Counted from the stretch's first letter, positions 20,879 to 40,205 are shown. The stretch: 52,844 bases of DNA from Candidatus Micrarchaeota archaeon UBA95 (GCA_002499405.1 DALH01000012.1:1-52844), one strand, 5' to 3'. Numbers and translations are program-made. The notes: generated by a model not told the origin, from the letters alone.

Positions 20879-23800
20879 ATGTTCGTTGACCGCATAGAAT
20901 TAAGGAACTTCAAGTCGTTTCGCGACGCCAAGATAAAGCTAGTCAACGGCGTTTCCTGCGTTATCGGGCCGAACGGCTCCGGCAAGTGCGTGCGCGGCGA
21001 CTCGCTGGTTTGGCTCGCGAGCGGCGAAACCAAGACGATTGAGGAACTCGTTGAAACGGCGTTGGAGAACGGCTCAAACGCCGAAATGGATGACGGCACT
21101 CTGACCTTGGACAACCCGCTCGGCATAAGCGTTTGGTCGCTGAACCCGGAAACGCTTCAAATGGAAGAGAAGATGGTTCAAGCATTCGTCAAACGCTCCT
21201 CCCCAAATGAGTTGTACGAGGTAACCACGCGTACCGGCAATAAAATCGTTGCAACCGGCTACCACCCACTAATGACCCTTCAAGACGGGAAATTAGCGGC
21301 GCTCAAAGCCGAAGAATTACGGGAAGGAACCTTCATTGCCGCGCCGCGAAGAATGGAATTCAGGGGAAGGGATTACTCGCCGCTAAGAGAACTGATTGAA
21401 TGGAGGACGGGTTTATACGTTGAAGCAAAACCCTTGGAAAAAAGGATGAGGCGCGTCAAAAACGAAAAAGGCAGGACTTGGAAGCAGTTAGCCGAAGATG
21501 CGGGCGTGCCGCTCAACGCGGTCAAAGGATTGCTGGACGGCCAGTCAATAGAGGTATACCACGCAAACAAGCTTGCCCGCATCGCCGGGTTAAGTGAAAC
21601 CGAAAAAAAGGAGTTATTCAAGGACGTGCATTCAAGAAACAGCCGCAAAAAAACCCGCATCCCAACGGAGTTGACGCCCGAACTCGCGCGCTTCCTTGGT
21701 TACGTAGTCAGTGAAGGTCGAGTAGTTGAAAACGAGGTTTTCTTCTACAACTCAGACGAAAACTTGTTGAAAGACTTTGAAAACGTTGCAAGGAAGACGT
21801 TCAACTGCACCGTAACGCGTTGCAACTACAAAGGCAAGGAATTCGTCGTAGTGCCGTCAAAAACGGTTTACAAAATTTTGGAAAAATGTTTCGGCTTCAA
21901 GAAAAACCAGCACTCGCGTGAAAAAACAATTTCCAAAAACCTTGAAAACGCCGAAACCCACGTCATCGCCGAATTCTTGTCAGCGCTCTACGACGGCGAC
22001 GGAACAATTCACGGCTCGCAAGTAAGTTATTGCACGGCAAGCGAAGCGTTGGCCCAAGGAATCAAGCGCTTGCTCCTGCGCACGGGGGTGACCGCCAGCC
22101 TAAAGCCCTGCCTAAAATGCGCAACCAACACGGATAAAAAAATCAAACGAAAATACTACCGCGTAACCGCTTACGGAAAGGAGAACGCGGCAAAACTCGC
22201 TGGACACCTGAAACTGTTGTCAAAAGAAAAGCACAAACGACTGTTAAAACTTGCACTAAGAAAAAAAACGTGCAAGGCAACAGACCTTGTACCGGGCGTA
22301 AACAAAGAGATAAGAAATTATTTAAAGAACAACGGTTTCTCCGACAGAAAACTCAAAAAAATAAAGCCGGGCAGGATACGCGCCTACTACGAAAACCGTT
22401 GCCTGCCAACACGCGCCGGCTTGAAAGCCGTTGCAAGATTATTGAACGGCGTTGGCGCGGTTACGGAAGCGGAAGAAGTCAGCTGCCTCGCGGAATCGGG
22501 TGTTTACTGGGACAAAGTAACCTCAATAAAAAAAGTTGACGGCGAACAATGGGTTTACGACTTGTGCGTTGAAGGCAACCACAACTTTTTATGCGAAGGG
22601 CTTTTCGTACACAACAGCAACGTCGTTGACGCGTTGATGTTCGCTTTCGGCGAGTCCCGCCTGCGCAGCATGCGCGTCAAGAAGTCAACGGACCTCATAT
22701 TCCACAACGCCAAAGCCGGCGAAGCCGTGGTGGAGTTCCGCGAAGGCGACAAAACCCATCCGGTGAAACGCGCGTTGAAACGCGACGGCAAGACGCGTTA
22801 CCTGCTGGACGGCAAGCGCGTGAAGAAATACGTGATAGACGAGTTCCTCGCCAAGCACAACATCTCCATGAACAACGTCATCAAGCAGGGCGAAGTCCAG
22901 CGCATAGTGGAGATGAGCGGCAATGAGCGCCGCGAACTCATTGATTTCGTGGCCAACATAAGCGAGTACGAGGAAAAGAAGGAGGAAGCGCTGAAGGAAC
23001 TGGCGAAGGTGGAGGCAACCCTCAAGGAAGCGCGACTCGTGTTAAGCGACAAGGAAGGCTTTCTCGCCGAACTGAAAGCGGAGAAGGAGGCCGCCGAAAA
23101 ATACGTGGCTTACGACAAGGAGTTCAAGGAATGCCGCGCCACAACGGCCGAAACCGACGCCGCGGCGCTGGAAAAAGAATTCAAGGAATTAATCGAGAAG
23201 GCGGGCAAGGCCGACGAACAGGAAAACGCGTTGAAGGCGCGCCTCAAGGAAGTGGAGGCGGCTCTTGAAAAAACGGACCGGGAAAAGGACGAGGTAAACG
23301 GGGAGATAACGGAGCGCAGCCGGGGCCGCAACCTGGAAGTGCAACGCGAGATGCAGGAATACTTCAACGCGTTGGAGCGCGCCAAAGCCGTGATTGAAGA
23401 CAAGCGGGAGGTGCGCAAGCGGCTGGAGGAACGCCTCCGCGATAAAAACGTGGAGGTCACGCGGGCCGGAGGCGAACTGCAAGGCGTTGAACGGCTGTTG
23501 AAGACCGCGGAAGAAGAACTGGAAAGCATCAGCAAAATTCTTGACTCGGAAGAAGGGAAGCTGAACGCGTTGCAGTCCAAGGAGAAAACTTTTTCCCAGG
23601 AATTTCTGGACGCCAAGAAGACGATTCAGGAATGCGAGGAGGGAATGGCGAGGGCGCGGGAGCGCCTCGGCGAACTCCAAGGCGAACTCGCGGCCCTGCA
23701 GGCAACGAGGCAAGCAAAGGAAAAGGAGTTGGAGCGGCTGCGGCGCGGGGTTGCCGGAGAGGACTTCGAACAACAGAAAAAGGAGTTGGAGCGCCTTGAA

Positions 23801-26008
23801 AACGCGGCCCAAAAAGAATTGGGTGCGATTGACAGGCGCGGAAACGCGTTGTTTGAACGCGAAAACAAGTTGAACCAGCGCAACGCGGAAATTGAAGAAA
23901 AATTGTTGGAGGCGAAGGAAAAGGTCTCCGAACACAGGGGGCGTTTGCAGCACGCGGGCACCAAAGGCCTGTCCGAAGCGCAGGCGGCGCAGGAACTCAA
24001 GGAAAACGTCGAAGGCGTTTACGGCACCGTGCGCGAGTTGTGCTCATTTCCCGAGGAATACGCGGTTCCCGTTGCGGTCGCCCTCGCGAACCGGCTCGGC
24101 TTCATCGTCGTCGCGGACGTGGACGCAGCCGGAAAGGCAATAGACTACTTAAAGCGCAACGACCTCGGCCGCCTCTCCTTCATCCCACTCAACAAAATCA
24201 AGGCGCGGCCCCTGAACGCCGAGGAGAAGGCGCTGGCGAAAAAGCCGGGCGCAATCAGGCACCTCATAGACCTGCTGAAATACGATTCAACCCACGAAAA
24301 AGCCATGCAATACGCGTGCGGCAACACCCTCCTCATGGAGTCGTTCGACGACGCGAAAAAACTCGTGCGCAAGGCGCGCCTGGTAACGCTCAAAGGCGAG
24401 CTACTGGAGTCCAGCGGCCTGGTCACCGGCGGAAAACGGTCCGGAAAGGCGGAGGACGCGTTCGCGGAAAAGGCGGCCCTTGACAAGTGGTCAAAGCAGG
24501 TTGAAAGAACCGCGGCCGAACGCGAAGCCGCGATGCAGTCGTTGCAGGCGCTGCGCGACGAAGTCAACGCCTTCAGGAAGGACCGCACCCAAGCCGAAGT
24601 GGCCTTGAAGGAAGTGCAAATCAGGAAGCAGAACCGGTTGGACCGCGAGAAGTCTTGGCTCTCTCAAAACGCGGACGTTGAAAAGGCGTGCAACGACTTG
24701 AAGAAGGAGGCAAAGGCGTGCGAAAGCCAAGCCGAAGAAAAGGGGGGTGAAAAAAGCGCGCTCATCAGGAGGATGTCCGAACTCAACGTCAAACTCCTGA
24801 ACGCGAAGCAAAAAGTGGACGTTGAAGCCGAACAAAAATTCGGCAACCTGTTAAAGGAAAAACAGCACCAGGTCGGGGAACTCAAAATCGCCTTGAAACA
24901 GCGCGAAGTCGAAGCCGACTCCCAGAAAACCAAGAAAAAGGTTTTGGAGGGGCAACTCGCGTCGTTGAAGAGGCAGTTGGACGACTTCAAAGCCGAAGAC
25001 GATGACGCGAGGAAGGCGATGGACGCGGCGGACGAAACCATAAAGGACTCGCGCAAGCAAATCTCCGCGTTGAAGGAAGAACAAAAGGAGTTGAGCAAGG
25101 GCTTCGAGGAACTGGTGGACAAGCGCGAAGCGCTCGCAAAAAAAGCCGAGAAACTGGAGGGGAACCGGGCGCATGCCAGGAACGAGTTGGACGACTTGGA
25201 CACGGGGCGCCGGAGCACGGACGCGCGAAAGGTGCAGGTGGAAACCCGGTTGGCGGACGCAAAGGCGCGCCTCGCCGAATTCGCGGGCGTGAAATGCCTC
25301 CAGGGAAAGACGCGGGTGTGGCTGATTTCGCGCGCGAACGAGTTGGATGACCTGATAAAGGAGATGGGCGCGGTCAACCTGCGCGCAATAGAAACCTATT
25401 CCCACAAGGCGGCCGACCTGGAGAAGCAGCAGGAACGCGTGGGCATACTCGAAAAGGAGAGGACCGCCGTGATGGCGATAATGGAGGCAATAGACCGCAA
25501 GAAGACGGCAACATTCATGAAGGCATTCGACGAAGTCAACGACTCCTTCCAAAAACTGTTCTCAAAGATTTTCACGGGCAACGGCATGCTTTACCTGGAA
25601 AACCCGGACAACCCGCTGGACGGCGGGCTCACCATCCAGGTGGAGTTGACGAACAAGGAAGTAATGTATTTGGAGTTGATGAGCGGCGGGGAAAAATCCT
25701 TGATCGCACTGCTCTTCCTGTTCGCCATACAATCCGCAAACCCGTCCTCCGTGTACATACTTGACGAGGCGGACGCGGCGCTGGACCAGGAGAACTCGCG
25801 CAAACTCGCCGCACTCCTCAAGGCGTTGAGCCGGGAAAGCCAGTTCATCGTCGTCACCCACAACGAAAACGTTTACAAGGCCGCGGACTGCCTGATAGGC
25901 GTTGCAATGCACGGCAGGCAGGGAAGCAAGGTCGTGGAAGTCAACCTGAACGACGCCAAAAAACTCGTCAACGAGGGGGCGGGAGAAAAAGAAAAATCAG
26001 TTAAATGA
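20879..26008 (+). CDS. smc: SMC chromosome-segregation ATPase, interrupted by an intein in the Walker A loop
   Basis: The Walker A motif GPNGSGK|...|SN is split by the intein. Long coiled coils and a hinge follow, then signature LMSGGEKSL and Walker B VYILDEADAALD. The extein sum is 1166 aa. Confidence 0.92.
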   Translation: MFVDRIELRNFKSFRDAKIKLVNGVSCVIGPNGSGKCVRGDSLVWLASGETKTIEELVETALENGSNAEMDDGTLTLDNPLGISVWSLNPETLQMEEKMVQAFVKRSSPNELYEVTTRTGNKIVATGYHPLMTLQDGKLAALKAEELREGTFIAAPRRMEFRGRDYSPLRELIEWRTGLYVEAKPLEKRMRRVKNEKGRTWKQLAEDAGVPLNAVKGLLDGQSIEVYHANKLARIAGLSETEKKELFKDVHSRNSRKKTRIPTELTPELARFLGYVVSEGRVVENEVFFYNSDENLLKDFENVARKTFNCTVTRCNYKGKEFVVVPSKTVYKILEKCFGFKKNQHSREKTISKNLENAETHVIAEFLSALYDGDGTIHGSQVSYCTASEALAQGIKRLLLRTGVTASLKPCLKCATNTDKKIKRKYYRVTAYGKENAAKLAGHLKLLSKEKHKRLLKLALRKKTCKATDLVPGVNKEIRNYLKNNGFSDRKLKKIKPGRIRAYYENRCLPTRAGLKAVARLLNGVGAVTEAEEVSCLAESGVYWDKVTSIKKVDGEQWVYDLCVEGNHNFLCEGLFVHNSNVVDALMFAFGESRLRSMRVKKSTDLIFHNAKAGEAVVEFREGDKTHPVKRALKRDGKTRYLLDGKRVKKYVIDEFLAKHNISMNNVIKQGEVQRIVEMSGNERRELIDFVANISEYEEKKEEALKELAKVEATLKEARLVLSDKEGFLAELKAEKEAAEKYVAYDKEFKECRATTAETDAAALEKEFKELIEKAGKADEQENALKARLKEVEAALEKTDREKDEVNGEITERSRGRNLEVQREMQEYFNALERAKAVIEDKREVRKRLEERLRDKNVEVTRAGGELQGVERLLKTAEEELESISKILDSEEGKLNALQSKEKTFSQEFLDAKKTIQECEEGMARARERLGELQGELAALQATRQAKEKELERLRRGVAGEDFEQQKKELERLENAAQKELGAIDRRGNALFERENKLNQRNAEIEEKLLEAKEKVSEHRGRLQHAGTKGLSEAQAAQELKENVEGVYGTVRELCSFPEEYAVPVAVALANRLGFIVVADVDAAGKAIDYLKRNDLGRLSFIPLNKIKARPLNAEEKALAKKPGAIRHLIDLLKYDSTHEKAMQYACGNTLLMESFDDAKKLVRKARLVTLKGELLESSGLVTGGKRSGKAEDAFAEKAALDKWSKQVERTAAEREAAMQSLQALRDEVNAFRKDRTQAEVALKEVQIRKQNRLDREKSWLSQNADVEKACNDLKKEAKACESQAEEKGGEKSALIRRMSELNVKLLNAKQKVDVEAEQKFGNLLKEKQHQVGELKIALKQREVEADSQKTKKKVLEGQLASLKRQLDDFKAEDDDARKAMDAADETIKDSRKQISALKEEQKELSKGFEELVDKREALAKKAEKLEGNRAHARNELDDLDTGRRSTDARKVQVETRLADAKARLAEFAGVKCLQGKTRVWLISRANELDDLIKEMGAVNLRAIETYSHKAADLEKQQERVGILEKERTAVMAIMEAIDRKKTATFMKAFDEVNDSFQKLFSKIFTGNGMLYLENPDNPLDGGLTIQVELTNKEVMYLELMSGGEKSLIALLFLFAIQSANPSSVYILDEADAALDQENSRKLAALLKALSRESQFIVVTHNENVYKAADCLIGVAMHGRQGSKVVEVNLNDAKKLVNEGAGEKEKSVK
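20987..22615 (+). mobile_element. SMC intein with LAGLIDADG homing-endonuclease domain (543 aa)
   Basis: Starts at Cys (CVRGDSLVWLASGE, block A). Block B is ATGYHPLMT. LAGLIDADG motifs are LARFLGYVVSEGR and IAEFLSALYDGDGT. It ends VYDLCVEGNHNFLCEGLFVHN, followed by the +1 Ser of GK-SN. Confidence 0.9.
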
Positions 26009-29303: not shown

Positions 29304-29939
29304 GTGGAACCGGCAAGGAAAAGGAACAGGGAACTGCTTGACAAATACAGTGGGAACGGCATCGTCTGGAAGGACGACTTGAACGCGTATTTCGGCCAAG
29401 CGGAAAAGTTTTTCGGGCCATCCCTCAAAGGCAAGCGCGTCCTGAACCTTGGCTCCGGCGACTCCGCGGGACGCGAAAAAGAGAGCTGGCTCGCAGCCAT
29501 GCTGAGGGACCGCGGAGCAGACGTGGTTGACCTTGACCACAGGCCCCCGAAAAGGAGGCCCGCGGTGCGTGCCGACCTTCTGGAAAAAAATCTTCCCTTC
29601 AAGGAAAAGGTTTTTGACTACGTGGTAAGCACCCAGGTATTTGAGAGAATGGGTTGCGAACCCGGCGAAAAACAGGCGCGCAACCTCGCACGCGAAATAA
29701 AGCGCGTCCTAAAGCCGGGCGGGGGATACTTCCAGTACACGCTGAACGAGCCCTCCCTGAAAACAAAACACTTTGAGGGAGCCGGCAAAACCGTGAAAGC
29801 TCGCGGGAAATCGGTTCCGCGCGAAGACATGGACCTGAACACGGAATTGATGATCGTGAATTCTCCCGTGCCGCTCGGCTGGATTCCGTGGCTGAGACAA
29901 CGCGGGCACGTATTGAAGTTCAAGAAAAACAAGACGTGA
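29304..29939 (+). CDS. class I SAM-dependent methyltransferase
   Basis: Motif I RVLNLGSGDS, post-I DVVDLD and motif IV-like LKPGG. GTG start. Confidence 0.65.
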   Translation: MEPARKRNRELLDKYSGNGIVWKDDLNAYFGQAEKFFGPSLKGKRVLNLGSGDSAGREKESWLAAMLRDRGADVVDLDHRPPKRRPAVRADLLEKNLPFKEKVFDYVVSTQVFERMGCEPGEKQARNLAREIKRVLKPGGGYFQYTLNEPSLKTKHFEGAGKTVKARGKSVPREDMDLNTELMIVNSPVPLGWIPWLRQRGHVLKFKKNKT

Positions 29940-30011: not shown

Positions 30012-30929
30012 ATGCGTTTCTTTGAATATCAAAAACTCTTACTTAAAACAAATCCTCGCGTGGTTCTCAACGTAAACGACCGTAAACGAATCTTAAAACC
30101 CGTGTTGAAAAAGGGTTCGATTAAGAGGTTTTGCCGTAAATACGGCTTGAATTACGACTGCATTAGGTTATGGATTGGAACTGGTAAAAAAATCAGGCAA
30201 CCAACTGCGGCGGGCTTACAAAAATTAGAAAACATTCTCGATATCAAAACAAAAAAACGAATATTCCAAGTCAACAACTCAAGGAGAATAGTGTCTGATA
30301 AAAACGTTATGCTAACCGAAGACGCTTGCATAGCAATAGGTTTATTCCTGTCTGAAGGACAGAAAACCACGAACAAGAAAATCACGTTTACGAATACGTC
30401 GGAAAAAGCCGTGTTGTTCTTCAAAAAATTTCTCAAACAAACGTTGCACGTAAAAACCAACAGAATTAAAATTTACGTTTATCACCCACGGAGGTCGCCT
30501 AACAAAGCACGCAATTACGTCAACAAAAAATCAAGCAAGACATGCTTCATCGTCTGCGCATACGACTGCTTCGCAAAAAGGGTTTTGAATAAACTAATCG
30601 GGGAGCTTGAATCGCCCACAAGCGAAGAAGCGCGCGGTTTATTGCAAGGCCTGCTTTACGGTGACGGCAACCTTGACTTCAGTGATTCAAGAAAGCATTA
30701 CGAGATAAGTATGGCCCTGGGCAAAAAGGAATGCAAAATCGCTGAAAAAACGCTTAAAAAACTCGGAATAAATTACAAGAAAAAAACTAAAAACAAAGTA
30801 GAAATCATCTCAATCCACAAAAAAAGCAACTTCGTTAAGGTTTGGCGAGCCGGGGGATTCGGAAAATTTGAAGAAGCGAAAAACGATAGGTTAAAGAAAG
30901 CCATATCAAATTACACTTACTCGAGGTGA
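30012..30929 (+). CDS. free-standing double-motif LAGLIDADG homing-endonuclease-like protein with N-terminal HTH
   Basis: The two motifs are ACIAIGLFLSEGQ and LLQGLLYGDGNL. The N-terminus GSIKRFCRKYGLNYDCIRLWI is HTH-like. The gene is strongly A/T-rich relative to its flanks and ends 10 nt before rtcB. Confidence 0.7.
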   Translation: MRFFEYQKLLLKTNPRVVLNVNDRKRILKPVLKKGSIKRFCRKYGLNYDCIRLWIGTGKKIRQPTAAGLQKLENILDIKTKKRIFQVNNSRRIVSDKNVMLTEDACIAIGLFLSEGQKTTNKKITFTNTSEKAVLFFKKFLKQTLHVKTNRIKIYVYHPRRSPNKARNYVNKKSSKTCFIVCAYDCFAKRVLNKLIGELESPTSEEARGLLQGLLYGDGNLDFSDSRKHYEISMALGKKECKIAEKTLKKLGINYKKKTKNKVEIISIHKKSNFVKVWRAGGFGKFEEAKNDRLKKAISNYTYSR

Positions 30930-30938
30930 AGCACAAAA

Positions 30939-33895
30939 TTGGAGTTTGAAGAAATGCGGGACTGCGTCTTTAAGGCGAAGGACGCCAACGTGACGATCTA
31001 CGCCAAACGCGAATTGTTTGAGGCAATGAAGGGCGACCGAACCTTCAAGCAAATCAAGAACGTTTCGCACCTGCCCGGATTGGAAGGCAACGCAATGGTC
31101 ATGCCCGATGGGCACGAAGGATACTCTTTTCAAAGCATTTGATAAGGGCCTTTAACGGTTTCCCAATCGGAGGCGTTGCCGCGTTCCGCATGGAGGACGG
31201 CGTTATCTCGCCTGGCGGAGTCGGGTATGACGTGAACTGCACCGACGGAGAAACCGCGGTTTTGTTCGAACACGGCACGTACCTTAAAATCAAGGAAATG
31301 GAAAACGGGGTCGGCGAAAGTCAAGCCCGTTTCCTTGACATCAACGGAGCGCTCGCATACGGAAACGCAAAAGTCGTCTGCTTCATGAAGAGACCGGAAG
31401 AATCCCATATATATGAAATAACCACCAGAACCGGCAAACGCATAAAAGTAACGGGCGACCACCCGATTTATACTAGGGAGGGAATGAAAAATGCGGATGC
31501 CATTAGCACAAACGATTCGGTGGCAACAACCGCGTTTAACGGCGTGCCTCACAAAGAACCAGAAAAAAAACTAATGGTAACCAAAGAAGAAATAGAAAAA
31601 ATACTTTTCGCAAAAAGAGGCAAAGTAAGAGGGAATTCCATAGCGCAAATAGTCAAAGACCTTGAAAGGCGCGGCTTGTTGCCATTAACTTCTTCACACC
31701 CGCAATTTCCATACCTCGTCAAGACGTTGGGTTACGTGTTTGGAGACGGTTCGATATCCTTTGTCAACGGAAAAAAAGGAACGACTTGGTTTTACGGCAA
31801 AGAAGAAGATTTGGAATCAATCCGCGAAGACATCAAGAAAATCGGGTTTACTCCTTCCAAAATCTATAAACGCACGAGAACACACCGCATTTCCACCTAC
31901 TATAAAAAACACGAATTCATACAGGTAGAATACAGCTTTAAGGTAGGTTCAACTGGTTTCGCGGCACTGTTGACCGCCCTTGGAACGCCTTCGGGCCTGA
32001 AGGCCACACAAGAATATGAAGTGCCCGGCTGGTTGAATCAAAGCCCCCTGTGGATTAAAAGACTGTTTCTTGCGGCTTTTTTCGGTGCCGAAATGTCGGC
32101 GCCAGCAACTCCGAACAAATACAACTTTTATGCGCCCACGCTCGGCATGAATAAACTGGAATCACTCGAATTAAACGCCGCAGAATTTTTGGAACAAATC
32201 AAAGCGTTATTATCGGATTTCGGGGTTGAAACCAGTCCAATAATGAAGGTTAAGGAATACGGAACCAAAGGAAAAAAAGGCGTCACTTGCGGCTACAGGA
32301 TTCAAGTAAGTTCAAAACCTGAAAACTTGAAAAAATTCTTTGAAACGGTTTCATTTGAATACAACAAGGAAAAATTCAAGAAAGCCTGCCTTGCAGCAAA
32401 CTACATTTACCTTAAAGAAAAGGTTAAAGAAAAAAGGAAAAGGATTCGAAAAACTGCGATAGCCCTTTATGCCGAAGGCAACTCGCCGCAAAATATTTGC
32501 AGGGAGTTATGTGACGAAAACGCTAATGAAGGATTCGTAAAGCATTCCATTTGGACAAACTACAAGGAAAACCCCCGCATTACGCCCGACTTCATGTCGT
32601 TTTCGGAATATCAAGAAAAATACGCTTGCGGTGATTCTGGAGCATCATGGGATGAAATAGAAAAAATAGAGAGAATACCCTTCGATGACTGGGTATACGA
32701 CATTACGATTGGTAACGAAAACCATAACTTTATCGCCAACGGATTCATCGTCTCAAACTGCGGGATGCGCCTGCTGCGCTCGGACCTCCAAGCCGACGAA
32801 GTGAAGCCCCGCGCAAAAGAATTGGTTGAAAGGTTTTACGCCAACGTGCCCGTCGGCGTCGGCACCAAGGCGCGCAAAACCTTTTCAAAGGAGGAACTCG
32901 GCGAAGCCGTGACGCGCGGCTTGGGCTGGGCGCTGGAACAAGACGTGGGCGTAAAAAAAGACGCCGAGCACTGCGAGGAAAACGGTTGCATGGCGGGCGC
33001 GGATTACTCCAAGGTGAGCGACCTCGCCAAGAAACGCGGAAAACCCCAGCTCGGCACCCTTGGAAGCGGAAACCATTTCTTGGAGTTGCAACGCGTGGCC
33101 CAGGTGTTCGACGACGAAAAAGCGCGCGCCTTCGGCTTGTTCGAGGGCCAGGCCACCGTAATGATTCACTCGGGTTCGCGGGGTTACGGCCACCAGATTT
33201 GCTCGGATTACATCCGCGTGATGCTTGACGCCAGCCGAAAATACGGCATTCACTTGGCCGACCCCGAACTCTGCTGCGCCCCCATCAACTCGCAGGAAGC
33301 AAGGGATTACGTTGGCGCGATGGCTTCGGCAGTGAACTACGCCTTCCTGAACCGCTTGTTCATGGCGCACTGGGTGAGGCAGTCATTTGAACAAGTGCTG
33401 GGAGGCGACTGGGAAACGCACGGCTTGCACTCAATTTACGACGTGTGCCACAACATAGCCAAATTCGAGGAACACGGCGGAAAAAAATTGTGCGTGCACC
33501 GCAAGGGCGCTACGCGCGCTTTCTGGGCGGGACGCGAAGAAGTTCCGGCCGACTACCGTTCAATTGGCCAGCCCGTAATCATTCCGGGCTCAATGCAGAC
33601 CGCTTCATACGTGTTGTGCGGCTTGGAGGGCGCGAAGGAATCGTGGGGAACCGTTTGCCACGGCGCGGGCCGCGTCATGAGCCGCCACGCAGCAATCCAG
33701 TCATTTGACTCGAACGCTCTCGTGAAAAACATGCATTCCAGAAGCATTGAAGTAAAGGCAAAAGACGCGCGCACGCTCTCCGAGGAAGCAGGGGGCGCTT
33801 ACAAGAACGTTGACGACGTGGTGGAAAGCGTTGAGCGCGCGGGCCTCGCCAAAATCGTGGCGCGGTTGGAGCCCCTCGGCGTAATCAAGGGCTAG
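30939..33895 (+). CDS. rtcB: RNA-splicing ligase RtcB, interrupted by a 32-nt BHB intron (31123..31154) and a LAGLIDADG intein (31238..32758)
   Basis: GAGGTGA lies 8 nt upstream of the TTG at 30939. Exon 1 (30939..31122) ends ...NAMVMPDGHEGY. Exon 2 (31155..) continues GFPIGGVAAFRMEDGVISPGGVGYDVN-[intein]-CGMRLLRSDL...GSGNHFLE...HSGSRGYGHQ...HRKGATRA...VIIPGSM. The predicted mature protein is 467 aa. Confidence 0.9.
31123..31154 (+). other. bulge-helix-bulge (hBHBh') intron within the rtcB coding sequence
   Basis: Central helix is A31117-A-G-G31120 paired with C31149-C-U-U31152 (4 Watson-Crick bp). The 3-nt bulges are 31121-23 (AUA) and 31153-55 (UAA) on opposite strands. Inner helix is 31124-28 with 31144-48 (C-G, U-G, C-G, U-A, U-A), extended by 31130-34 with 31138-42 and a GCA triloop. 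Outer helix is G31116-C31156 and C31115-G31157. Cleavage after the 2nd bulge nucleotide removes 32 nt and gives GGA UAC GGU UUC CCA = GYGFP. Confidence 0.78.
31238..32758 (+). mobile_element. RtcB intein with LAGLIDADG homing-endonuclease domain (507 aa)
   Basis: Starts CTDGETAVLF (block A). Block B is VTGDHPIYT. LAGLIDADG motifs are LVKTLGYVFGDGS and IKRLFLAAFFGAEMS. It ends VYDITIGNENHNFIANGFIVSN. The +1 residue is the Cys of the conserved GYD(I/V)NCG active-site motif. Confidence 0.9.
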
Positions 33896-36800
33896 CCCAC
33901 TGGCAGGAGTAACCCGTGCTGGACGAGGAGTCCGCCAGGCAGGTACAGCCAAGGTAGCTTTGACGACACTCGCTTATGCCCGGGTGTTTGAGGAAACCCT
34001 CGTAATCTGAGGACCTCACCTGCAGGCATTCATCGTTCGCCTCCTTCTGGTAGGCGTTAATGCAGTGAAACAATTTCTCGTTTGGGTCGCCCTTGCGACT
34101 GCTCCAGGCGCACGTGGAGTGCGGGCCGCACAAGTTTGCTTGCGACTCGCTTCCGCTAGAAAAAGGAAAATCCTCGTCCTGCTTGATTTGTAATGGAACG
34201 CAGTAGTCGCCCGCCTTCAACGACCGCGGGGTGTAGCAGAACTTCTGCAAATCGTCATAAAAGGATGCACAGGTCTCGCTGGGCTTGCACTGCTCGGTTT
34301 TGGTGCACAGCTTGAAGTTGAGCCCAATTATGTAGGGAAGGCACTCAACCATCTTCCGCGGGTCATCCCCAACTTTCTCAAGGCATTCTTCAAAGTCCGC
34401 ACTCTGCTCTGGCTCGCGTTCTTCCTCGGGCGCTGCGTCCGGCGCGCCTCCGCACCACGCCTCGGTGTAGTCCTCGTTGAATTCAATTAGGCAGGGCGCG
34501 CCCTCTCCCTCAAACAAGAAGTATTTGAGGAGGGGTTCGGCTTCGTCGCCGTAAAACAGCCGGCCGTCCTTCAGTTGGAGGTAAACTTTGCCCTTGGGGT
34601 CGCTGGTGGCAACCGCCTTGATTAACGCCTTGCCTTCGCCGGCTATTGACTGCTCATCGCGCTCGAAGTCGAATGCCTTGCCCCAGTCAAACCCGTACTT
34701 GTTTATGGTCAACAAGTTGGGCGAGCTGAATTCGTCCCAATCCATTTCGCCGCTTTCCTTGACAAAGGGGTAGGGAAGTGAAGTGAAGGACGGGAAGTCG
34801 GTTCCCGAATAACCGAAGGCGTCCAAGAACAAGTTGGCTATGTTCGTCTTGGAGGGGCCCGTCAAAGAGGTTTCATAGACCTCGTTCCACGGCGTGCCGT
34901 CTATTTGGTCCACGAGAACCCAGTCATTTGTCCCGCCGCCAAACGCGTTCGCGGGGTCGAACTGGAATGTCAGCAGGCGTATTCCGCCGGCTTCGCCGCT
35001 CTTCACGGTTTCCCCGCTAACCTTCACGGGAACTATTACCTTGAGGTCACTCAAGTCAATTATTGGTTCCAAGTGCTGGAGCGTACCCTCGCGCGGGGTG
35101 AGCATGCCTTTCAAACCCGTCTTGAACGAGGCCCAGAACTGGGGCCCGTATTGCTGGGATGAACCCACCAAGTAATTGAATAATTGCGAGTTGCACGTCG
35201 TGAACTGGAAGGCGTCCCCGTAAATATCGCCGAAGGACGTGCCGGTTTCCTGAACCGTAGTCAACTCGGCGGAACAAGACAACTTGAGTTGCTCCAACGG
35301 GTCTCTGCCTATTGCCTTGCACGCCTCGTAAGTCACCTTGGCGGCCACATAGTCCGCGATTGCGTCATCCAACGCCTTCTCGAACATGTCCGCGGTCCCG
35401 GTGACCAGCGAGGCCTCGTCCACCTTGTCCAGCCCCTCGTAAAACTCCTGGTACGCGTCGTTTACCACGCGCTCTATTTCCTGCTTGACGTCTTCAAGTT
35501 CGGTGGGGGTGCAGTAACCGGTCCGCGAACAGCGGAGCAACCCGCTTTCAACTGCGCCGGGGTTGCCCACCACGTCGGCTATATAGTAATCGGGTCCTGC
35601 CTTAGACGCTTCAAAATGGGCTTGCCCGACCTCGTCAACTCCCCTCTTAATCGCGACTAAGCCGTCCTCACCGGCTTTTAGTTCGGCGTAATCCCAGCCC
35701 AACGGCTCCAACACCATTTGGTTGGACAATCCCTCACCTGAAACCGTGAAGGTCGCATCTTCGCCGCCGGTTTGCACGTTGTTCGCTGCGAGCACGGGTT
35801 CGCGCGCGGAGGGGTTGCGGTAAACTATTTCGCCGCCCAGCGGCATCAAAATCAAGCCGAGTTCGGACAAGGATTCGTCTTCCTTCACCGTGAACCTGAT
35901 TTTCACTTCGCGGCTGGATAACCCGGAAGTTGAAACCTTTAATTCAATTGTCCACGGCTCCGAATGCGCGAGGGTGAGCCGGCCGTCGGATTCGTAAACG
36001 AAGTCCATGCAGCCCTTCTCGGAGGGATCAAATATCAACGCGTAAGTGCGGTACTGGTTCGCGGGAAGCATCAGCGCCTGGCTTCCAAGGTCCACGAGGT
36101 TCGTCACCAGCGAGCGCAGCGTGGGTCTATCGCGCTCCAAGTCAACCAATTTGAAGCACGTCCCCGTGCCCCCCTTCAGGAATATCTGGGTGTCCTGGCC
36201 GAACGAGTTCTTCACGGAGAACGCGATGCCGTTCGTGGGAATGAGCGCGCTGATTTCCTTTGTGCACGTGAGCGAAGTGGTTCCGCTGCACCCTTCTCCG
36301 CCCGCCGAGACCTGCAGGCCGTAAGGCGAGACCACTATGTAGTTGTCGGCGGTTGAAGCAATGTAACTTGATGTCTCGGAGGGGTTGAACAACTGGTTCG
36401 CGTGGTATTGTGCGAGGCGCCGCGCGAGAATTGACGCGAAGTTGAAGTTCGCCGGCTCGCACTCCTCGGCTGAAAACTGGGTGCAAGACGAGTAAACGCG
36501 GGAACCATTAAAATAATTCGCGTATTGCGCGAGGCACTCGCCTTCCGCCTGCAACTCCAGGCACTCTGCTTCGGTGCACAATGCGCAGTGCTCGGCCGAG
36601 CACTCGTATTCCTCCAAGCCGGCGGTGGTCTTGTTCAACTCGCACGAAACAAAAGAGTAATTCCCGTCGGGCAGAATTGAGTACTCGGGGTAACAATAAT
36701 CCCCTTTCTCCATGAGGTTGAGGCACTGCGCCTCGTTGCACGCCCCGCAGTTCGCCGAAGAACAATTCTCCGAAGCGTTGACTTCCGGCTTCAGCTCCGC

Positions 36801-39800
36801 GCACGAAACCTTGATGAACGCCGTCTTGGAGAAAGCCGAGCCGCTGGACTCAAGCACTGAGTTGAACACGAGATAGCACTCACCGTAACGAGTGGACTCC
36901 AAAAATATTTGCGTGTCGCCCAAGCCCTTAATTGAAAAAGAGTAATCGTTTTGCCCCACGGGTTTTATGCTGGGGCCGCTCAACGAGGCGCACGCAGTCC
37001 CCGAGAACGAGGCACGCACCTCAACCTCGGACTCCAACAGGTTTTCAACGCGGAGGGAAGCGCCGTCGCAATCCAGTTCAATGCTTCCGGGGTCGGGGTA
37101 AAACTCCAGCCAGTCAAACGCCTTCACGGCCACTTCCACGACCGCGTCGTTGAAGCCCGGCTTGCTTGCAACCACTTCTATTACTCCGGGCGCGCTCGGC
37201 CTCAACCCCTTGAACTTGTATTTGCCTTCTTCTCCCGAGTCGCGCGAGCCGTCGCCGAGAACGTAGTAGTCGCCGTTGGGCGACGAGCCGAACGAATAAC
37301 CCTCCACCTCAACTATTTCAACTCGCGCGTCCTCCACGGCTGCGCCGCTCTTTGAAGCCAAGGTCGCAACCAAGTCGGTTCTCTGCCCCGTTCTCAACTC
37401 GTCGGGCTTGACCGCGAACACGAATTCACCCTTGCCCGTAATCGTGACAAATCGCTGGGCGCGCAGCAATTCGCCGTCGGAGTCGCCGAGCACGAAGTCA
37501 AGGCGCGCGTAATCAGATGGAATGCCCGCAATTGCCTTGACCGCAAAGAAGTCCCTGCCCAGTTCATCCAACGCAAGGTTGACGGTGAACTCGCCGGACT
37601 CCACTTCCTTGGAGGAATTGTTTTTGAGGACTTCCGTGAAAATCACTTGGCCGTCGGCCGCTGAAACCTTGACGTAGGGGGAAGAAACGCTTTTGAATAC
37701 GCGGGCCTGAACGCTCGCCGCGAACTCGTGGTCCACTTCCACGGGCAGCCCGTTGGAAAGCAGTTGGTTGCTGGTTGACAACGCTATTGCGAGGCAGGCG
37801 TCGTCGTTGCAGGTCGCCGAACCCGAAACAACTTCAAAAGAGGTTTCCTCGGTTAGGGCGCGGCACGCCTGCCTGCCGGAAACCGATTCCTCGGACCCGA
37901 GGTCCGGGTCTTCGGGCGCGCGGAACCAGTAGCCGCCCTTCTCCGCAAAAGCGCGGTAATCAAAGGAAACGCTTCCCTTCGCGGAGGGCTTGACGAATAC
38001 TTTTGCGGAAAGCGTGCGCACGCCGAACCCTCCCTCAAACTCTAATTGAACCCATTTGTATTCTTCTGCGTAGTCCGCGACCTCGTCCGAACACGAGTAA
38101 TCGGGCTCGTAAGCGTCGCCCTTGATGACAACCACTTCGGCTCCCCCGGGTTCGTTCCACGAAACAAGTACTGCCTGCGATTCGTCGGCTCCGCCGTCGC
38201 CTCCGGCACGCAAAACAAATCCGCTACTGTCAGCTCCCGAAGGCAGGCTGACTGTGAGCAGGGCGCGGTAGTAGTTCCCCTTTTCAATGAATTCCACGGG
38301 TTCCAGCGTTACCGCGTCCACCAACTCAAACGAGATTATCTGGAGTTCGTCCGAGTAACTCGCGGGCACGAGCTTCAACGTCTTCGCCGCCTCCTGTCCC
38401 GTCCCCAAAACAATGGGTTCGGACTCAAACTCGGAGTATTGCTCGTCGGAAACCTTCAAAACCACGGGCTTGTTGGCGCGAACCTTCAACTTGCACGAAA
38501 CGTTCGTGGAACCCGCCCCAGTCCTGCACGAGGAAATCTTTTCGTCGTCTAGGAACGCCTCCACTTCCACGGCCACGTTGCGGCGCGGTTGCTGGGTGGC
38601 GTCCACCGCGTCCACCTTCAAGTAAGCGTAAGTCGGCTCCAGCCAAATTGTTGACTCCGCCTCCTCGGAAACCGAAACCTTGAAGGCGTCGCCCTCCCCC
38701 GAAGCCGAGCCCTTGCGCGCGATTGCGCGGAACTCCGACAAGGGAAGCAATTCAAACAATGCAGAGCCGTCGTCCAGGGTTTCCGCGTCGGGAACCCCGG
38801 AATTAAAGCCGTCGCTGGTGAGCAAAGAAACGCGCGCAAAAGGGACGCGGTCCCCCTCGGGGTCGAGCACGAGGACGCGGGCAACGCCGTTGTTTCCGGG
38901 AACCGTTTTCTCGAGCGTGACTGTGAGGGTATCGCCCGCGAGAACGCTTTTCTCCAGGTGTGGGAGGAACCCTTGCGCGAACACCGTCAAATAACCGGTC
39001 GTGCCCTCGGCGACCTCCATTTCCGCGAGCCCGAAATCGTTGGTTTCCGCGGAAGCCAGAAGGTTGAGCGGGTTCTCCAAGGAATAAAGCATTACCTGCG
39101 CATTCCCGATTTCGCCTCCCTCCTCGTCTGCGGCAGCAATCGTTATCGTGCGCGTGCTCGCCACCCCTTTTTCCTCGAGGTTGACGCGGAACTCTATTCC
39201 GCCGACCAGAATCGTTTGCACGTTGTCAAAGCCGGGGTACCCCCAATAACTCGTGTCCTCCGGCGAAACCGATACGTAAACCCTGGTTCCGACCGCGACC
39301 CCTTCAAAGAAGGCGACTCCGTCCCCGCCCGAAACGCGCTCGTCCAACAACTGGCCCGTTGAAGCATCAAACAGGGATGCCCTTGCGCGCGCGCCTTCGC
39401 CGCTCGGCTCCTTCACGAAGACGAGAACCGAGGCAGTTGCCTCCATTTTCCCGCCTTCGTCTGTTGGCGTGGTCTGCTCGGCCTTCAACTCTATGAAGCA
39501 CGTTCCCTGCGAGGCAAAACACGTCTTCTTTTCTTCCACGAAGCCCTTGCGCCTGACCGTCAACTTGAATATTTCCGTGCCGTCCTCGAACTCCAGGAAC
39601 GCGGAGCCGCTCGCGTCCGTGGACTCCTCCACCTGTTCGCCAGTGTTTGGGTCGGAGAAAAGCAGGACCGCGCCGCTCAACGCGTCTCCATCCGGGTTGG
39701 CGACGGTCACCGTCAACTTCGGCTTTTCAATTGTTTCCGGTGAAAGCGTTACCTGCTTCAACAAAACGTTTGCCCCCTCCTCAAGAACGAGTTCGAACTC

Positions 39801-40205
39801 GGAGGCAAACAACTCGAACCCCTCCAATGACACGCGCACGCTGGCGCCCGCACCTTCGGGCAGGCCGTCGAAGCGCGCCGTGCCCGACGCGTCCGTAATC
39901 CTTTCAACTGACTCGTCGCCGTAGTAAAGCGTTACCAGCGCGCCCTGCAGGGGCGAGCCGTTGCTCGAGGAAACCGTTACCTGGACGGGCACGCCAGACG
40001 GCGCCAGAAGCAGGGCCGAGAGGCCGCCGAGCACGAGGAGGGCGAGGAGCGCCGCAATCGGAAACGATGGAATGCCGCTTTTCTCCACAGGGGTAATAAA
40101 CCAGTCGTAAACCCTTGCGCCGCGCTCCTGAAACCAGTCCATCAAAGAGTAATATTTCTCTTCCAACGAGAAGTAAAATCCCCGCAATCCGCCTTCTTCG
40201 CTCAT
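33885..40205 (-). CDS. giant (2106 aa) N-terminally anchored surface protein with CarboxypepD_reg/Ig-like repeats and Cys-rich modules
   Basis: N-terminal TM helix IPSFPIAALLALLVLGGLSALLLAP. It has repeated V.V...G.PL.GA.V.L......TDASG.A.F..L..G units. The C-terminal third is Cys-rich. Its 3' end overlaps the rtcB 3' end by 11 nt. Confidence 0.8.
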   Translation of the reverse strand: MSEEGGLRGFYFSLEEKYYSLMDWFQERGARVYDWFITPVEKSGIPSFPIAALLALLVLGGLSALLLAPSGVPVQVTVSSSNGSPLQGALVTLYYGDESVERITDASGTARFDGLPEGAGASVRVSLEGFELFASEFELVLEEGANVLLKQVTLSPETIEKPKLTVTVANPDGDALSGAVLLFSDPNTGEQVEESTDASGSAFLEFEDGTEIFKLTVRRKGFVEEKKTCFASQGTCFIELKAEQTTPTDEGGKMEATASVLVFVKEPSGEGARARASLFDASTGQLLDERVSGGDGVAFFEGVAVGTRVYVSVSPEDTSYWGYPGFDNVQTILVGGIEFRVNLEEKGVASTRTITIAAADEEGGEIGNAQVMLYSLENPLNLLASAETNDFGLAEMEVAEGTTGYLTVFAQGFLPHLEKSVLAGDTLTVTLEKTVPGNNGVARVLVLDPEGDRVPFARVSLLTSDGFNSGVPDAETLDDGSALFELLPLSEFRAIARKGSASGEGDAFKVSVSEEAESTIWLEPTYAYLKVDAVDATQQPRRNVAVEVEAFLDDEKISSCRTGAGSTNVSCKLKVRANKPVVLKVSDEQYSEFESEPIVLGTGQEAAKTLKLVPASYSDELQIISFELVDAVTLEPVEFIEKGNYYRALLTVSLPSGADSSGFVLRAGGDGGADESQAVLVSWNEPGGAEVVVIKGDAYEPDYSCSDEVADYAEEYKWVQLEFEGGFGVRTLSAKVFVKPSAKGSVSFDYRAFAEKGGYWFRAPEDPDLGSEESVSGRQACRALTEETSFEVVSGSATCNDDACLAIALSTSNQLLSNGLPVEVDHEFAASVQARVFKSVSSPYVKVSAADGQVIFTEVLKNNSSKEVESGEFTVNLALDELGRDFFAVKAIAGIPSDYARLDFVLGDSDGELLRAQRFVTITGKGEFVFAVKPDELRTGQRTDLVATLASKSGAAVEDARVEIVEVEGYSFGSSPNGDYYVLGDGSRDSGEEGKYKFKGLRPSAPGVIEVVASKPGFNDAVVEVAVKAFDWLEFYPDPGSIELDCDGASLRVENLLESEVEVRASFSGTACASLSGPSIKPVGQNDYSFSIKGLGDTQIFLESTRYGECYLVFNSVLESSGSAFSKTAFIKVSCAELKPEVNASENCSSANCGACNEAQCLNLMEKGDYCYPEYSILPDGNYSFVSCELNKTTAGLEEYECSAEHCALCTEAECLELQAEGECLAQYANYFNGSRVYSSCTQFSAEECEPANFNFASILARRLAQYHANQLFNPSETSSYIASTADNYIVVSPYGLQVSAGGEGCSGTTSLTCTKEISALIPTNGIAFSVKNSFGQDTQIFLKGGTGTCFKLVDLERDRPTLRSLVTNLVDLGSQALMLPANQYRTYALIFDPSEKGCMDFVYESDGRLTLAHSEPWTIELKVSTSGLSSREVKIRFTVKEDESLSELGLILMPLGGEIVYRNPSAREPVLAANNVQTGGEDATFTVSGEGLSNQMVLEPLGWDYAELKAGEDGLVAIKRGVDEVGQAHFEASKAGPDYYIADVVGNPGAVESGLLRCSRTGYCTPTELEDVKQEIERVVNDAYQEFYEGLDKVDEASLVTGTADMFEKALDDAIADYVAAKVTYEACKAIGRDPLEQLKLSCSAELTTVQETGTSFGDIYGDAFQFTTCNSQLFNYLVGSSQQYGPQFWASFKTGLKGMLTPREGTLQHLEPIIDLSDLKVIVPVKVSGETVKSGEAGGIRLLTFQFDPANAFGGGTNDWVLVDQIDGTPWNEVYETSLTGPSKTNIANLFLDAFGYSGTDFPSFTSLPYPFVKESGEMDWDEFSSPNLLTINKYGFDWGKAFDFERDEQSIAGEGKALIKAVATSDPKGKVYLQLKDGRLFYGDEAEPLLKYFLFEGEGAPCLIEFNEDYTEAWCGGAPDAAPEEEREPEQSADFEECLEKVGDDPRKMVECLPYIIGLNFKLCTKTEQCKPSETCASFYDDLQKFCYTPRSLKAGDYCVPLQIKQDEDFPFSSGSESQANLCGPHSTCAWSSRKGDPNEKLFHCINAYQKEANDECLQVRSSDYEGFLKHPGISECRQSYLGCTCLADSSSSTGYSCQWASP

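Follow-up and report, generated by a model that had tools for sequence, protein, structure and literature searches.

The bulge-helix-bulge (BHB) intron of cbf5 in Crenarchaeota (Watanabe 2002; Yoshinari 2006; Yokobori 2009, PMC2738675) has been the cited example of a BHB intron in an archaeal coding sequence for more than 20 years. As of 2020 it was the only one reported besides the case of HVO_1309 in Haloferax volcanii, where the intron lies in the 5' untranslated region (UTR) and was confirmed by experiment as a substrate of EndA (PMC7714728). In archaea EndA cleaves BHB motifs, and exon ligation at BHB introns is assigned to RtcB (PMC5829648). RtcB proteins are also hosts of inteins, 27 bacterial and 10 archaeal examples of which have been catalogued (PMC4760082); in P. 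horikoshii RtcB (PH1602) the splice junction is Cys98 (PMC4150793). Here we describe an rtcB gene that appears to carry both kinds of element. It occupies positions 30939..33895 (+ strand) of a 52,844-nucleotide stretch of DNA from Candidatus Micrarchaeota archaeon UBA95 (GCA_002499405.1, DALH01000012.1:1-52844; the whole stretch is called the window below), and is cut by a predicted 32-nt BHB intron and a predicted 507-amino-acid LAGLIDADG intein, which are separated by 83 nt of exon.

Like the cbf5 intron, the rtcB intron is short, lies inside a coding sequence and interrupts a gene for an RNA-processing enzyme; it presumably also relies on a permissive EndA for excision and on RtcB for ligation, and its patchy distribution implies gain and loss. 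It differs in the host gene and lineage (rtcB of DPANN archaea) and in that the product of the interrupted mRNA is the ligase of the pathway itself. Unlike cbf5, rtcB has relatives with at least five intron sites in ~90 nt, some of them occupied by introns of 11-13 nt, and an intein and a free-standing endonuclease gene lie beside the intron. The HVO_1309 intron is likewise located in an mRNA, but its removal restores no reading frame. In eukaryotes, a short intron is excised from the coding mRNA of HAC1/XBP1 without the spliceosome and with a change of reading frame. There too an endonuclease leaves a cyclic phosphate and a 5'-OH, which are then joined by a tRNA ligase (RtcB in metazoa); the endonuclease is, however, IRE1 instead of EndA, the reaction is a regulated stress switch, and the mRNA that is spliced is not that of the ligase. 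The P. horikoshii RtcB intein has the same Asn/Cys insertion point, and its +1 Cys is a metal ligand, whereas the window intein ends with Ser-Asn and has an extra helix-turn-helix (HTH)-like segment. Collaborative homing between a free-standing homing endonuclease and an intron in phages, reportedly described by Bonocora and Shub in 2009 and by Zeng et al. in 2009, also involves an endonuclease gene whose neighbour carries an intron in its conserved target region. That system differs in consisting of group I introns in phage genes, and its resemblance to the endonuclease gene upstream of rtcB in the window (30012..30929) is a lead only.

Reviews and primary papers of 2018-2025 on archaeal pre-mRNA BHB introns cite cbf5 only. 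No description of an rtcB mRNA intron was found in the searchable full-text literature, which lacks most subscription journals, and an earlier report is possible. The splicing chemistry and the intein allele are known, and what is new is the host gene, its predicted self-dependence, the mini-introns at multiple sites and the association with an intein and an endonuclease gene.

In the window rtcB is split between two open reading frames (ORFs). The first (30939..31142) starts with MEFEEMRDC... and reads ...PDGHEGY near its end, followed by SFQSI and a stop codon. The second (31139..33895, 918 amino acids) is in a different frame and carries on with GFPIGGVAAF.... Pfam matched the start of the RtcB profile to the first ORF (residues 38-62 of exon 1), and the remaining part of RtcB (PF01139, 502.5 bits), together with an intein splicing domain, to the second. 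The predicted parts of the gene are as follows.

30939..31122, + strand: rtcB exon 1, with TTG start (MEF...; ATG in relatives), 61 codons and the first base (U) of the Tyr62 codon

31115..31157, + strand: predicted BHB motif, from the minimum free energy (MFE) structure of 31095..31185 and from covariation over 34 homologues

31123..31154, + strand: predicted BHB intron, 32 nt, ACUCUUUUCAAAGCAUUUGAUAAGGGCCUUUA, G+C 0.34, splitting a Tyr codon (U/AC) in HEGY^GFPIGG

31155..31237, + strand: rtcB exon 2, 83 nt encoding (Y)GFPIGGVAAFRMEDGVISPGGVGYDVN, up to the intein

31238..32758, + strand: predicted intein, 507 amino acids, 1521 nt, with HINT splicing domain, LAGLIDADG endonuclease domain and HTH-like segment, G+C 0.434

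32759..33895, + strand: rtcB C-extein, beginning with the +1 Cys (CGMRLL...), stop codon TAG at 33893-95, Pfam RtcB 502 bits

With both inserts taken out, a 467-amino-acid RtcB with all catalytic residues is obtained; the precursor still containing the intein would have 974 amino acids. N-termini homologous to that of exon 1 (MEFKK...) are found in L001 and L024. The G+C content of the three exon pieces is 0.53, 0.63 and 0.59, compared with the values listed for the intron and the intein, and the G+C content at third codon positions (GC3) is lower in the intein (0.48) than in the extein (0.73). A sequence-only reading of this DNA had proposed the two inserts, with the coordinates and length of the intein and the 83 nt of exon between the two, and had called both more A/T-rich than the exteins. 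The reading frames, the fold and the sequence confirmed the former statement in every detail, and the G+C and GC3 values bear out the latter.

In the MFE fold the outer helix of the BHB consists of 2 bp (C31115-G31157 and G31116-C31156), and the central helix of 4 bp is formed by AAGG (31117-20) and CCUU (31149-52). The 3-nt bulges AUA (31121-23, 5' side) and UAA (31153-55, 3' side) lie on opposite strands, and the inner stem-loop comprises 31124..31148; this canonical register scores 4/4 for the central, 5 for the inner and 2 for the outer helix. The predicted cuts, after the second nucleotide of each bulge, would create the junction GGA U/AC GGU (Gly-Tyr-Gly) with the frame kept, and would rebuild the invariant HEGYGFPIGG motif. 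An empty site with the identical junction was found in the closest relative. The best matches of the mature protein in a protein search were RtcB proteins of Micrarchaeota, and the closest of these, P0001 (locus L005), was 83% identical by BLASTP and 82% over the global alignment. The rtcB gene of L005 is uninterrupted: aligned as DNA, it shows a gap of exactly 32 nt opposite the predicted intron, and it contains no intein.

The GTDB species representatives were scanned for the flanking codons separated by a gap of 20-50 nt. An insert of 27-39 nt was detected at the same rtcB codon in 41 species genomes, a number that is a lower bound because the narrow pattern missed L055, whose first intron sits two codons further upstream, and L056, which has PDAH instead of PDGH. 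The genomes with the intron were labelled Woesearchaeota (15/41), Micrarchaeota (7/41), Aenigmatarchaeota (6/41), 'uncultured Methanosarcinales' (6/41) and Nanoarchaeota or Nanoarchaeia (5/41), and 2/41 were unclassified. The label 'uncultured Methanosarcinales archaeon' (L009, L017, L030, L036, L042, L045) is doubtful and probably wrong, because the introns of these genomes are nearly identical to Woesearchaeota ones (e.g. L009 and L025). Insert length modulo 3 was 0, 1 and 2 in 19, 9 and 13 of the 41 genomes, respectively; the occurrence of all three phases fits excision at the RNA level and not frameshifting or recoding. All four central-helix positions formed standard pairs in 31 of the 41 genomes, three did so in five and two in another five. 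Two Micrarchaeota proteins called as truncated RtcB (P0035 and P0104) have a small ORF upstream, with inserts of 32 and 27 nt at the same codon; the inner sequences of these inserts are unrelated, and their helix-and-bulge geometry is alike. In L002 both rtcB halves are in one frame and are parted by a stop codon only.

Covariation was scored on a gap-free alignment of 34 distinct introns anchored on both splice sites, and compared with 500 shuffles. The paired cells on the canonical structure amounted to 77.9%, compared with 59.8% in the shuffled alignments, and the covariation score was 0.548 versus 0.185, with none of the 500 shuffles scoring as high. Every slid register scored below the canonical BHB register. 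In the inner helix 90.8% of the cells were paired and all eight pairs had changed on both sides, i.e. the changes were compensatory. The second pair of the central helix changed from A-U to G-C in step with the codon change that turns HEGY into HWGY. These comparative data indicate that the rtcB intron is real, and the geometry, the in-frame junction, the empty site in a relative and the covariation are concordant with the BHB intron proposed in the sequence-only reading. A scan of the whole window for canonical BHB motifs was rejected as an intron finder, as it proved nonspecific (316 candidates on the + strand, 81 of them ORF-compatible); it recovered the rtcB intron and no other convincing case in the window.

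The gene around the inserts was compared with its counterpart in L005, with which the window shares the gene order SMC, ferredoxin, EF-Tu-like, SpoIIM, glutamine amidotransferase (GATase), GMP synthase, rtcB and giant surface protein. The proportions of nonsynonymous (pN) and synonymous (pS) differences were 0.156 and 0.757 in exon 1, 0.05 and 0.71 in exon 2, and 0.105 and 0.56 in the C-extein, and dN/dS was ~0.1 overall and in all three extein pieces. In an alignment to 1UC2, the residues corresponding to Asp95, Cys98, His203, His234, His329 and His404 of P. horikoshii RtcB, which we take to be the catalytic set defined by the structures of that enzyme, were all conserved. The low dN/dS and the retained catalytic residues argue that the rtcB locus is not decaying. 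On this evidence the rtcB of the window is intact and under purifying selection, and is predicted to encode a 3'-phosphate/5'-OH RNA ligase.

The intein begins with CTDGET and ends with FIVSN, followed by CGMRLL of the C-extein. Its motifs, whose invariance was judged in an alignment of 31 intein sequences (alignment A3), are located as follows.

31451..31462, + strand: block B, TGDH, residues 72-75, H75 invariant

31727..31756, + strand: LAGLIDADG motif 1, LGYVFGDGSI, residues 164-173, with putative catalytic Asp170; G165, G169, D170 and G171 invariant

32069..32098, + strand: LAGLIDADG motif 2, LAAFFGAEMS, residues 278-287, with putative catalytic Glu285; F282, G283, A284 and E285 invariant

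The residues expected of a class 1 intein are present (Cys1, T72-G-D-H75, Asn507 and the +1 Cys), and Pfam Intein_splicing (PF14890) was matched with 73.8 bits (cut-off 35.8; E = 1.7e-20). An AlphaFold model built from 31 homologues had a predicted local distance difference test score (pLDDT) of 94.2 and a predicted template-modelling score (pTM) of 0.92. The best PDB matches found with Foldseek were TliVMA (E = 3e-18), PI-TkoII, PhoVMA, PI-PfuI and PI-SceI (to ~2e-7); mini-inteins (root-mean-square deviation 1.3-3 Å over ~100 residues) and the free-standing endonuclease I-AniI came next. Whole-chain template-modelling scores (TM-scores) to the PDB matches were ~0.3, a low value that is due to several domains being aligned together. 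As both acidic residues are invariant, the endonuclease of the intein may still be active.

The insertion point lies between Asn and Cys: GYDVN+CGMRLL aligns without gaps with GYDINCGVRL of P. horikoshii RtcB, and Cys90 of the mature protein aligns with Cys98. Sequence searches yielded 73 homologues of the intein, at least 70 of which are located within RtcB, in bacteria (candidate phyla radiation (CPR), Chloroflexi, Atribacteria, Omnitrophota and others) and in archaea; a pattern search recognised at least one of the two junctions of the site (GxDIN/C, ...SN/CG[VM]R) in 59 of the 73. The nearest inteins are unnamed metagenome proteins with 58-66% identity over part of the length, and identity to the nearest DPANN and bacterial RtcB inteins ranges over 28-66%. 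Over the full length the window intein is 40% identical to that of L037, 38% to that of L035 (Woesearchaeota label) and 33% to that of the Micrarchaeia locus L011. That it is nearer to L037 and L035 than to L011 is the pattern expected from horizontal homing. By site and homology the intein belongs to an allele family that is already known.

These results agree with what had been read from the sequence about this element. The intein assignment is upheld by the Pfam score above cut-off, the confident model and PDB matches that are homing-endonuclease inteins; the splicing profile, whose failure to be detected had been named as a possible refutation, was detected above its cut-off (73.8 bits, cut-off 35.8). 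The +1 nucleophile had been taken to be the conserved metal-binding Cys, and the alignment with Cys98 supports this. The precedent claimed for Thermococcales at the same RtcB position also stands, as Cys98 is named as the splice junction (PMC4150793). None of the 73 homologues bears a Thermococcales name, and most are nameless.

The combination of intron and intein recurs in DPANN archaea. A complete intein at the same site is accompanied by one or two introns in no fewer than seven further loci. L011 (Micrarchaeia, 466 amino acids), L015 (Aenigmatarchaeota, 494 amino acids), L035 and L037 have a complete intein downstream of the first intron, and L024 (Micrarchaeota) has a mini-intein of 145 amino acids there. 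In L027 and L036 the start of an intein is visible before the sequence ends. Two introns plus an intein are found in L035, L037, L055 and L056. The sequence-only reading knew of no description of the combination with an mRNA intron; the searchable literature yielded none of an rtcB mRNA intron, and the combination is not peculiar to the window, as these loci demonstrate. Judged by the predicted elements, the arrangement in the window exemplifies an architecture that recurs in DPANN archaea.

Second interruptions within exon 2 are frequent. Fourteen of them resolve as introns of 11-36 nt whose removal exactly restores PGGIGFDINC, and 13 of the 14 have a 4/4 central helix. Their insertion sites (PGG^I, GY^D, GFD^I or FDI^N) precede the intein site by ~3-20 nt, and in all, DPANN rtcB genes have at least five intron sites within ~90 nt upstream of that site. 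The further BHB introns (11-36 nt, some 11-13 nt), all located within this stretch, include the site H^SGY; they were seen in L010, L012, L013, L023, L026, L031, L033, L035, L037, L040, L041, L045, L046, L055 and L056. Intein-bearing RtcB proteins with an N-terminus uninterrupted in the gene call (P0045, P0121 and P0144, the first and the last named Micrarchaeota) exist as well, and L001 and L002 have the intron and no intein. Since each element occurs without the other, the two are independent, though often found together. Enrichment of inteins among intron-bearing rtcB genes is put forward as a hypothesis; the list from the search with the mature extein omitted the window's own 918-amino-acid product, which is in NCBI, and so is unfit for counting intein alleles.

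Two of these loci deserve separate mention for other reasons. In L036 (~4010..4791) a run of N joins two diverged rtcB 5' ends, of which only one has intron 1, and both ends run into the start of an intein; strain polymorphism, two copies or a scaffolding artefact are possible. A gene for Archease, the RtcB activation cofactor, adjoins the interrupted rtcB in L055 (5266..5526), and also in L056 (692..1114), the two being Woesearchaeota and Nanoarchaeota loci; among the scanned ORFs of the window no Archease gene was seen near rtcB.

On the comparisons described above we consider it about 85% probable that the window contains an intact rtcB with two independent selfish inserts in the part coding for the active site, one removed by RNA splicing with RtcB itself as the ligase and the other, subsequently, by protein splicing. 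In the first step the pre-mRNA would fold into the BHB and EndA would cut after the second nucleotide of each 3-nt bulge, releasing the 32-nt intron and leaving 2',3'-cyclic phosphate and 5'-OH ends. RtcB already present in the cell would then ligate the exons and rebuild the Tyr62 codon (U+AC). Because the established archaeal pathway uses RtcB as its ligase, RtcB is probably needed for the splicing of its own mRNA; ligase expression would thus depend on ligase inherited from the mother cell, which would constitute a positive feedback loop. In the third step the 974-amino-acid precursor would be translated, and the class 1 intein would excise itself and join Asn89 to Cys90. Since the metal site GYDVN-CG (Asp-x-x-Cys) would be formed only by this excision, no precursor would be active. 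As a fourth step, the LAGLIDADG domain of the intein may still drive homing into empty rtcB alleles.

Several observations weigh against this scheme. The outer helix is paired in 53% of the cells over the homologues and has only 2 bp in the window. Such a weak outer helix suggests a relaxed BHB form that would need a permissive EndA, as relaxed motifs are cut by permissive EndA types only (PMC5829648). The EndA of Micrarchaeota ARMAN-2 is of the broad-specificity epsilon2 type (PMC3488258, PMC12397907). No endA gene was found among the ~22 ORFs scanned in the 52.8-kb window. The folding energy of 31095..31185 was not significant by itself (z = -1.15), and, this energy being uninformative, the support for the intron was taken from the comparative evidence (empty site and covariation). 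In the intein, the penultimate residue is Ser506 and the usual His is missing. Inteins without a penultimate His exist, and most homologues of the window intein also end with Ser-Asn, which makes this terminus a trait of the family and not a sign of decay. The LAGLIDADG_3 profile (PF14528) matched the window intein weakly (residues 274-371, 17.8-20.9 bits, below the cut-off of 22.5); a precomputed PF14528 match is present in seven of the intein homologues. Finally, the self-dependence of RtcB assumes that the genome contains no second rtcB and no other 3'-phosphate ligase.

The last point leads to the alternative that survives best, in which the intron is excised but the exons are joined by a second, uninterrupted rtcB paralogue or by a healing-and-sealing pathway, so that no self-referential loop exists. 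Only 52.8 kb of the genome are visible, and the two joined rtcB 5' ends of L036, with and without intron 1, may represent two copies as well as two strains. DPANN genomes are, however, small, and paralogues are uncommon in them. Moreover, the copy that is under strong purifying selection and occupies the ancestral syntenic position is the interrupted one, and RtcB is the assigned ligase of archaeal BHB splicing (PMC5829648). We regard joining by another ligase as unlikely, though it merits more weight than the explanations that follow.

It is very improbable that rtcB is a split gene of the kind found in Nanoarchaeum, with a 67-amino-acid N-terminal peptide and a separately started C-terminal protein that associate non-covalently. 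Gene callers do report two ORFs, and the second can be opened by a TTG at 31139, but this start lies inside the intron and is not preceded by a ribosome-binding site. The break falls within the invariant GY/GFPIGG motif, and the halves of L002, which share a frame with only a stop codon between them, do not fit two separate genes. A split gene would also leave unexplained the conserved BHB geometry, the compensatory changes and the codon restoration in 41 genomes.

Translational recoding, in which the ribosome would frameshift or hop across the 32 nt as in phage T4 gene 60, could draw on the UGA stop codon at 31140-42, soon after the break, and on the presence of a stem-loop. This explanation is scarcely tenable: the take-off and landing codons do not match (UAC at the break, no UAC or UAU at the landing site), homologous inserts occur in all three phases, some in frame with internal stops, and the covarying structure is specifically the BHB.

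A decaying pseudogene or an assembly or sequencing artefact, which the disrupted frame and the large A/T-rich insert might suggest and the first of which the earlier reading had itself named as a possible refutation, can be regarded as effectively refuted: dN/dS is ~0.1 in every extein piece and the catalytic residues are retained, the intein frame is open over 507 codons with a confident fold, homologous interruptions are found in 41 species, and of two NCBI assemblies in which the upstream endonuclease gene has the same neighbours and its product is 100% identical, one, when followed further downstream, has rtcB called as ORFs of 67 and 918 amino acids. The upstream product is also 100% identical to a protein of 'Candidatus Micrarchaeota archaeon CG10_big_fil_rev_8_21_14_0_10...'. 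In public gene calls the rtcB genes of L054 (GCA_002785565.1, PFCE01000067.1), L001 and L002 are split into an unannotated ORF of 66-71 amino acids and a truncated or intein-bearing RtcB, and the intron is never annotated.

The region immediately upstream of rtcB contains two further features.

30012..30929, + strand: LAGLIDADG and HTH homing-endonuclease-like gene, 305 amino acids, G+C 0.39, LAGLIDADG_3 25.1 bits (cut-off 22.5), HTH_28

30923..30929, + strand: Shine-Dalgarno-like element GAGGTGA, read from the sequence, 9 nt 5' of the rtcB start

The endonuclease-like gene thus ends 9 nt 5' of the rtcB start, and its stop codon is overlapped by GAGGTGA; a (G)AGGTG-like element also precedes the rtcB start in L001, L002 and L049. 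The gene is absent from the syntenic L005. Homologues with 39-41% identity and the same C-terminus (..NYTYSR) were found directly before intron-bearing rtcB genes of other Micrarchaeota, in L024 (2707..3606), L033 (86..715), L049, L050 and L051. The family has only four clusters in a collection of 5.8 billion proteins, and every member with readable downstream DNA precedes an intron-bearing rtcB. A metagenome scan for the family, based on narrow peptide patterns of low sensitivity, gave two more loci, both near L024. The possibility that the gene is a copy of the intein endonuclease was rejected, the BLASTP E-values being 0.3 or worse. A link between this gene and the mobility of the intron or the intein is proposed as a hypothesis. 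A 211-amino-acid ORF for an S-adenosylmethionine (SAM)-dependent methyltransferase (29304..29939) lies between guaA and the endonuclease-like gene and is absent from this place in L005; the two genes form a ~1.7-kb insertion relative to L005.

In a wider and more tentative interpretation, the start of DPANN rtcB (~270 nt) would be an arena in which mobile elements interact, instead of a gene that received two insertions by chance, and self-joining by RtcB would be a real feedback control on the level of the ligase. The arena would comprise BHB mini-introns at no fewer than five sites, an intein with endonuclease at the Cys98 site and a dedicated upstream LAGLIDADG gene. The introns would spread as DNA, through co-conversion triggered by endonuclease cuts in empty alleles, or, alternatively, would persist because they abolish a homing site, the invariant active-site peptide being unharmed once the RNA is spliced. 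We think the odds are against this interpretation, but not heavily enough to set it aside. Recent co-conversion of the 5' region from a distant intron-bearing donor was considered for the window and rejected: identity to L005 is 79% for the N-extein and 84% for the C-extein, and both extein parts are ~55-68% identical to intron-bearing Micrarchaeota, with no sign of a foreign 5' end in this comparison, which is crude and blind to short tracts or close donors.

Further features were noted in other parts of the window. The SMC gene (20879..26008) has a 543-amino-acid LAGLIDADG intein (~20987..22615) in the P-loop (GSGK/CVRGD...FVHN/SNVV), with a G+C content of 0.49 compared with 0.57 in the rest of the gene; the SMC protein of the syntenic relative (1155 amino acids) has no intein match. 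Together with the rtcB intein this makes at least two endonuclease-bearing inteins within 12 kb of the genome. At 3530..6436 and 2160..3533 (- strand) a 968-amino-acid Eco57I/MmeI-type restriction-modification fusion lies beside a Schlafen/AlbA_2-HATPase protein, a pair (2160..6436) that looks like a defence island. A 2106-amino-acid ORF is located at 33885..40205, and the large ORFs at 47919..50738 and 50748..52748 have no Pfam match.

Annotation pipelines call interrupted rtcB genes as an orphan ORF of 66-71 amino acids and a truncated RtcB, and with such split annotation DPANN genomes may be scored as ligase-defective. If the rtcB intron is spliced as predicted, protein-coding BHB introns would be widespread in DPANN archaea, they could be as short as 11-13 nt, and two could occur in one gene. 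The introns, the intein and the endonuclease gene gathered at one active-site motif would provide a system for studying the origin and movement of BHB introns, and, should the wider interpretation hold, the first evidence of endonuclease-linked mobility or selection of such introns in protein-coding genes. An essential RNA ligase would, moreover, require its own activity for its synthesis, which would represent a simple and testable feedback loop.

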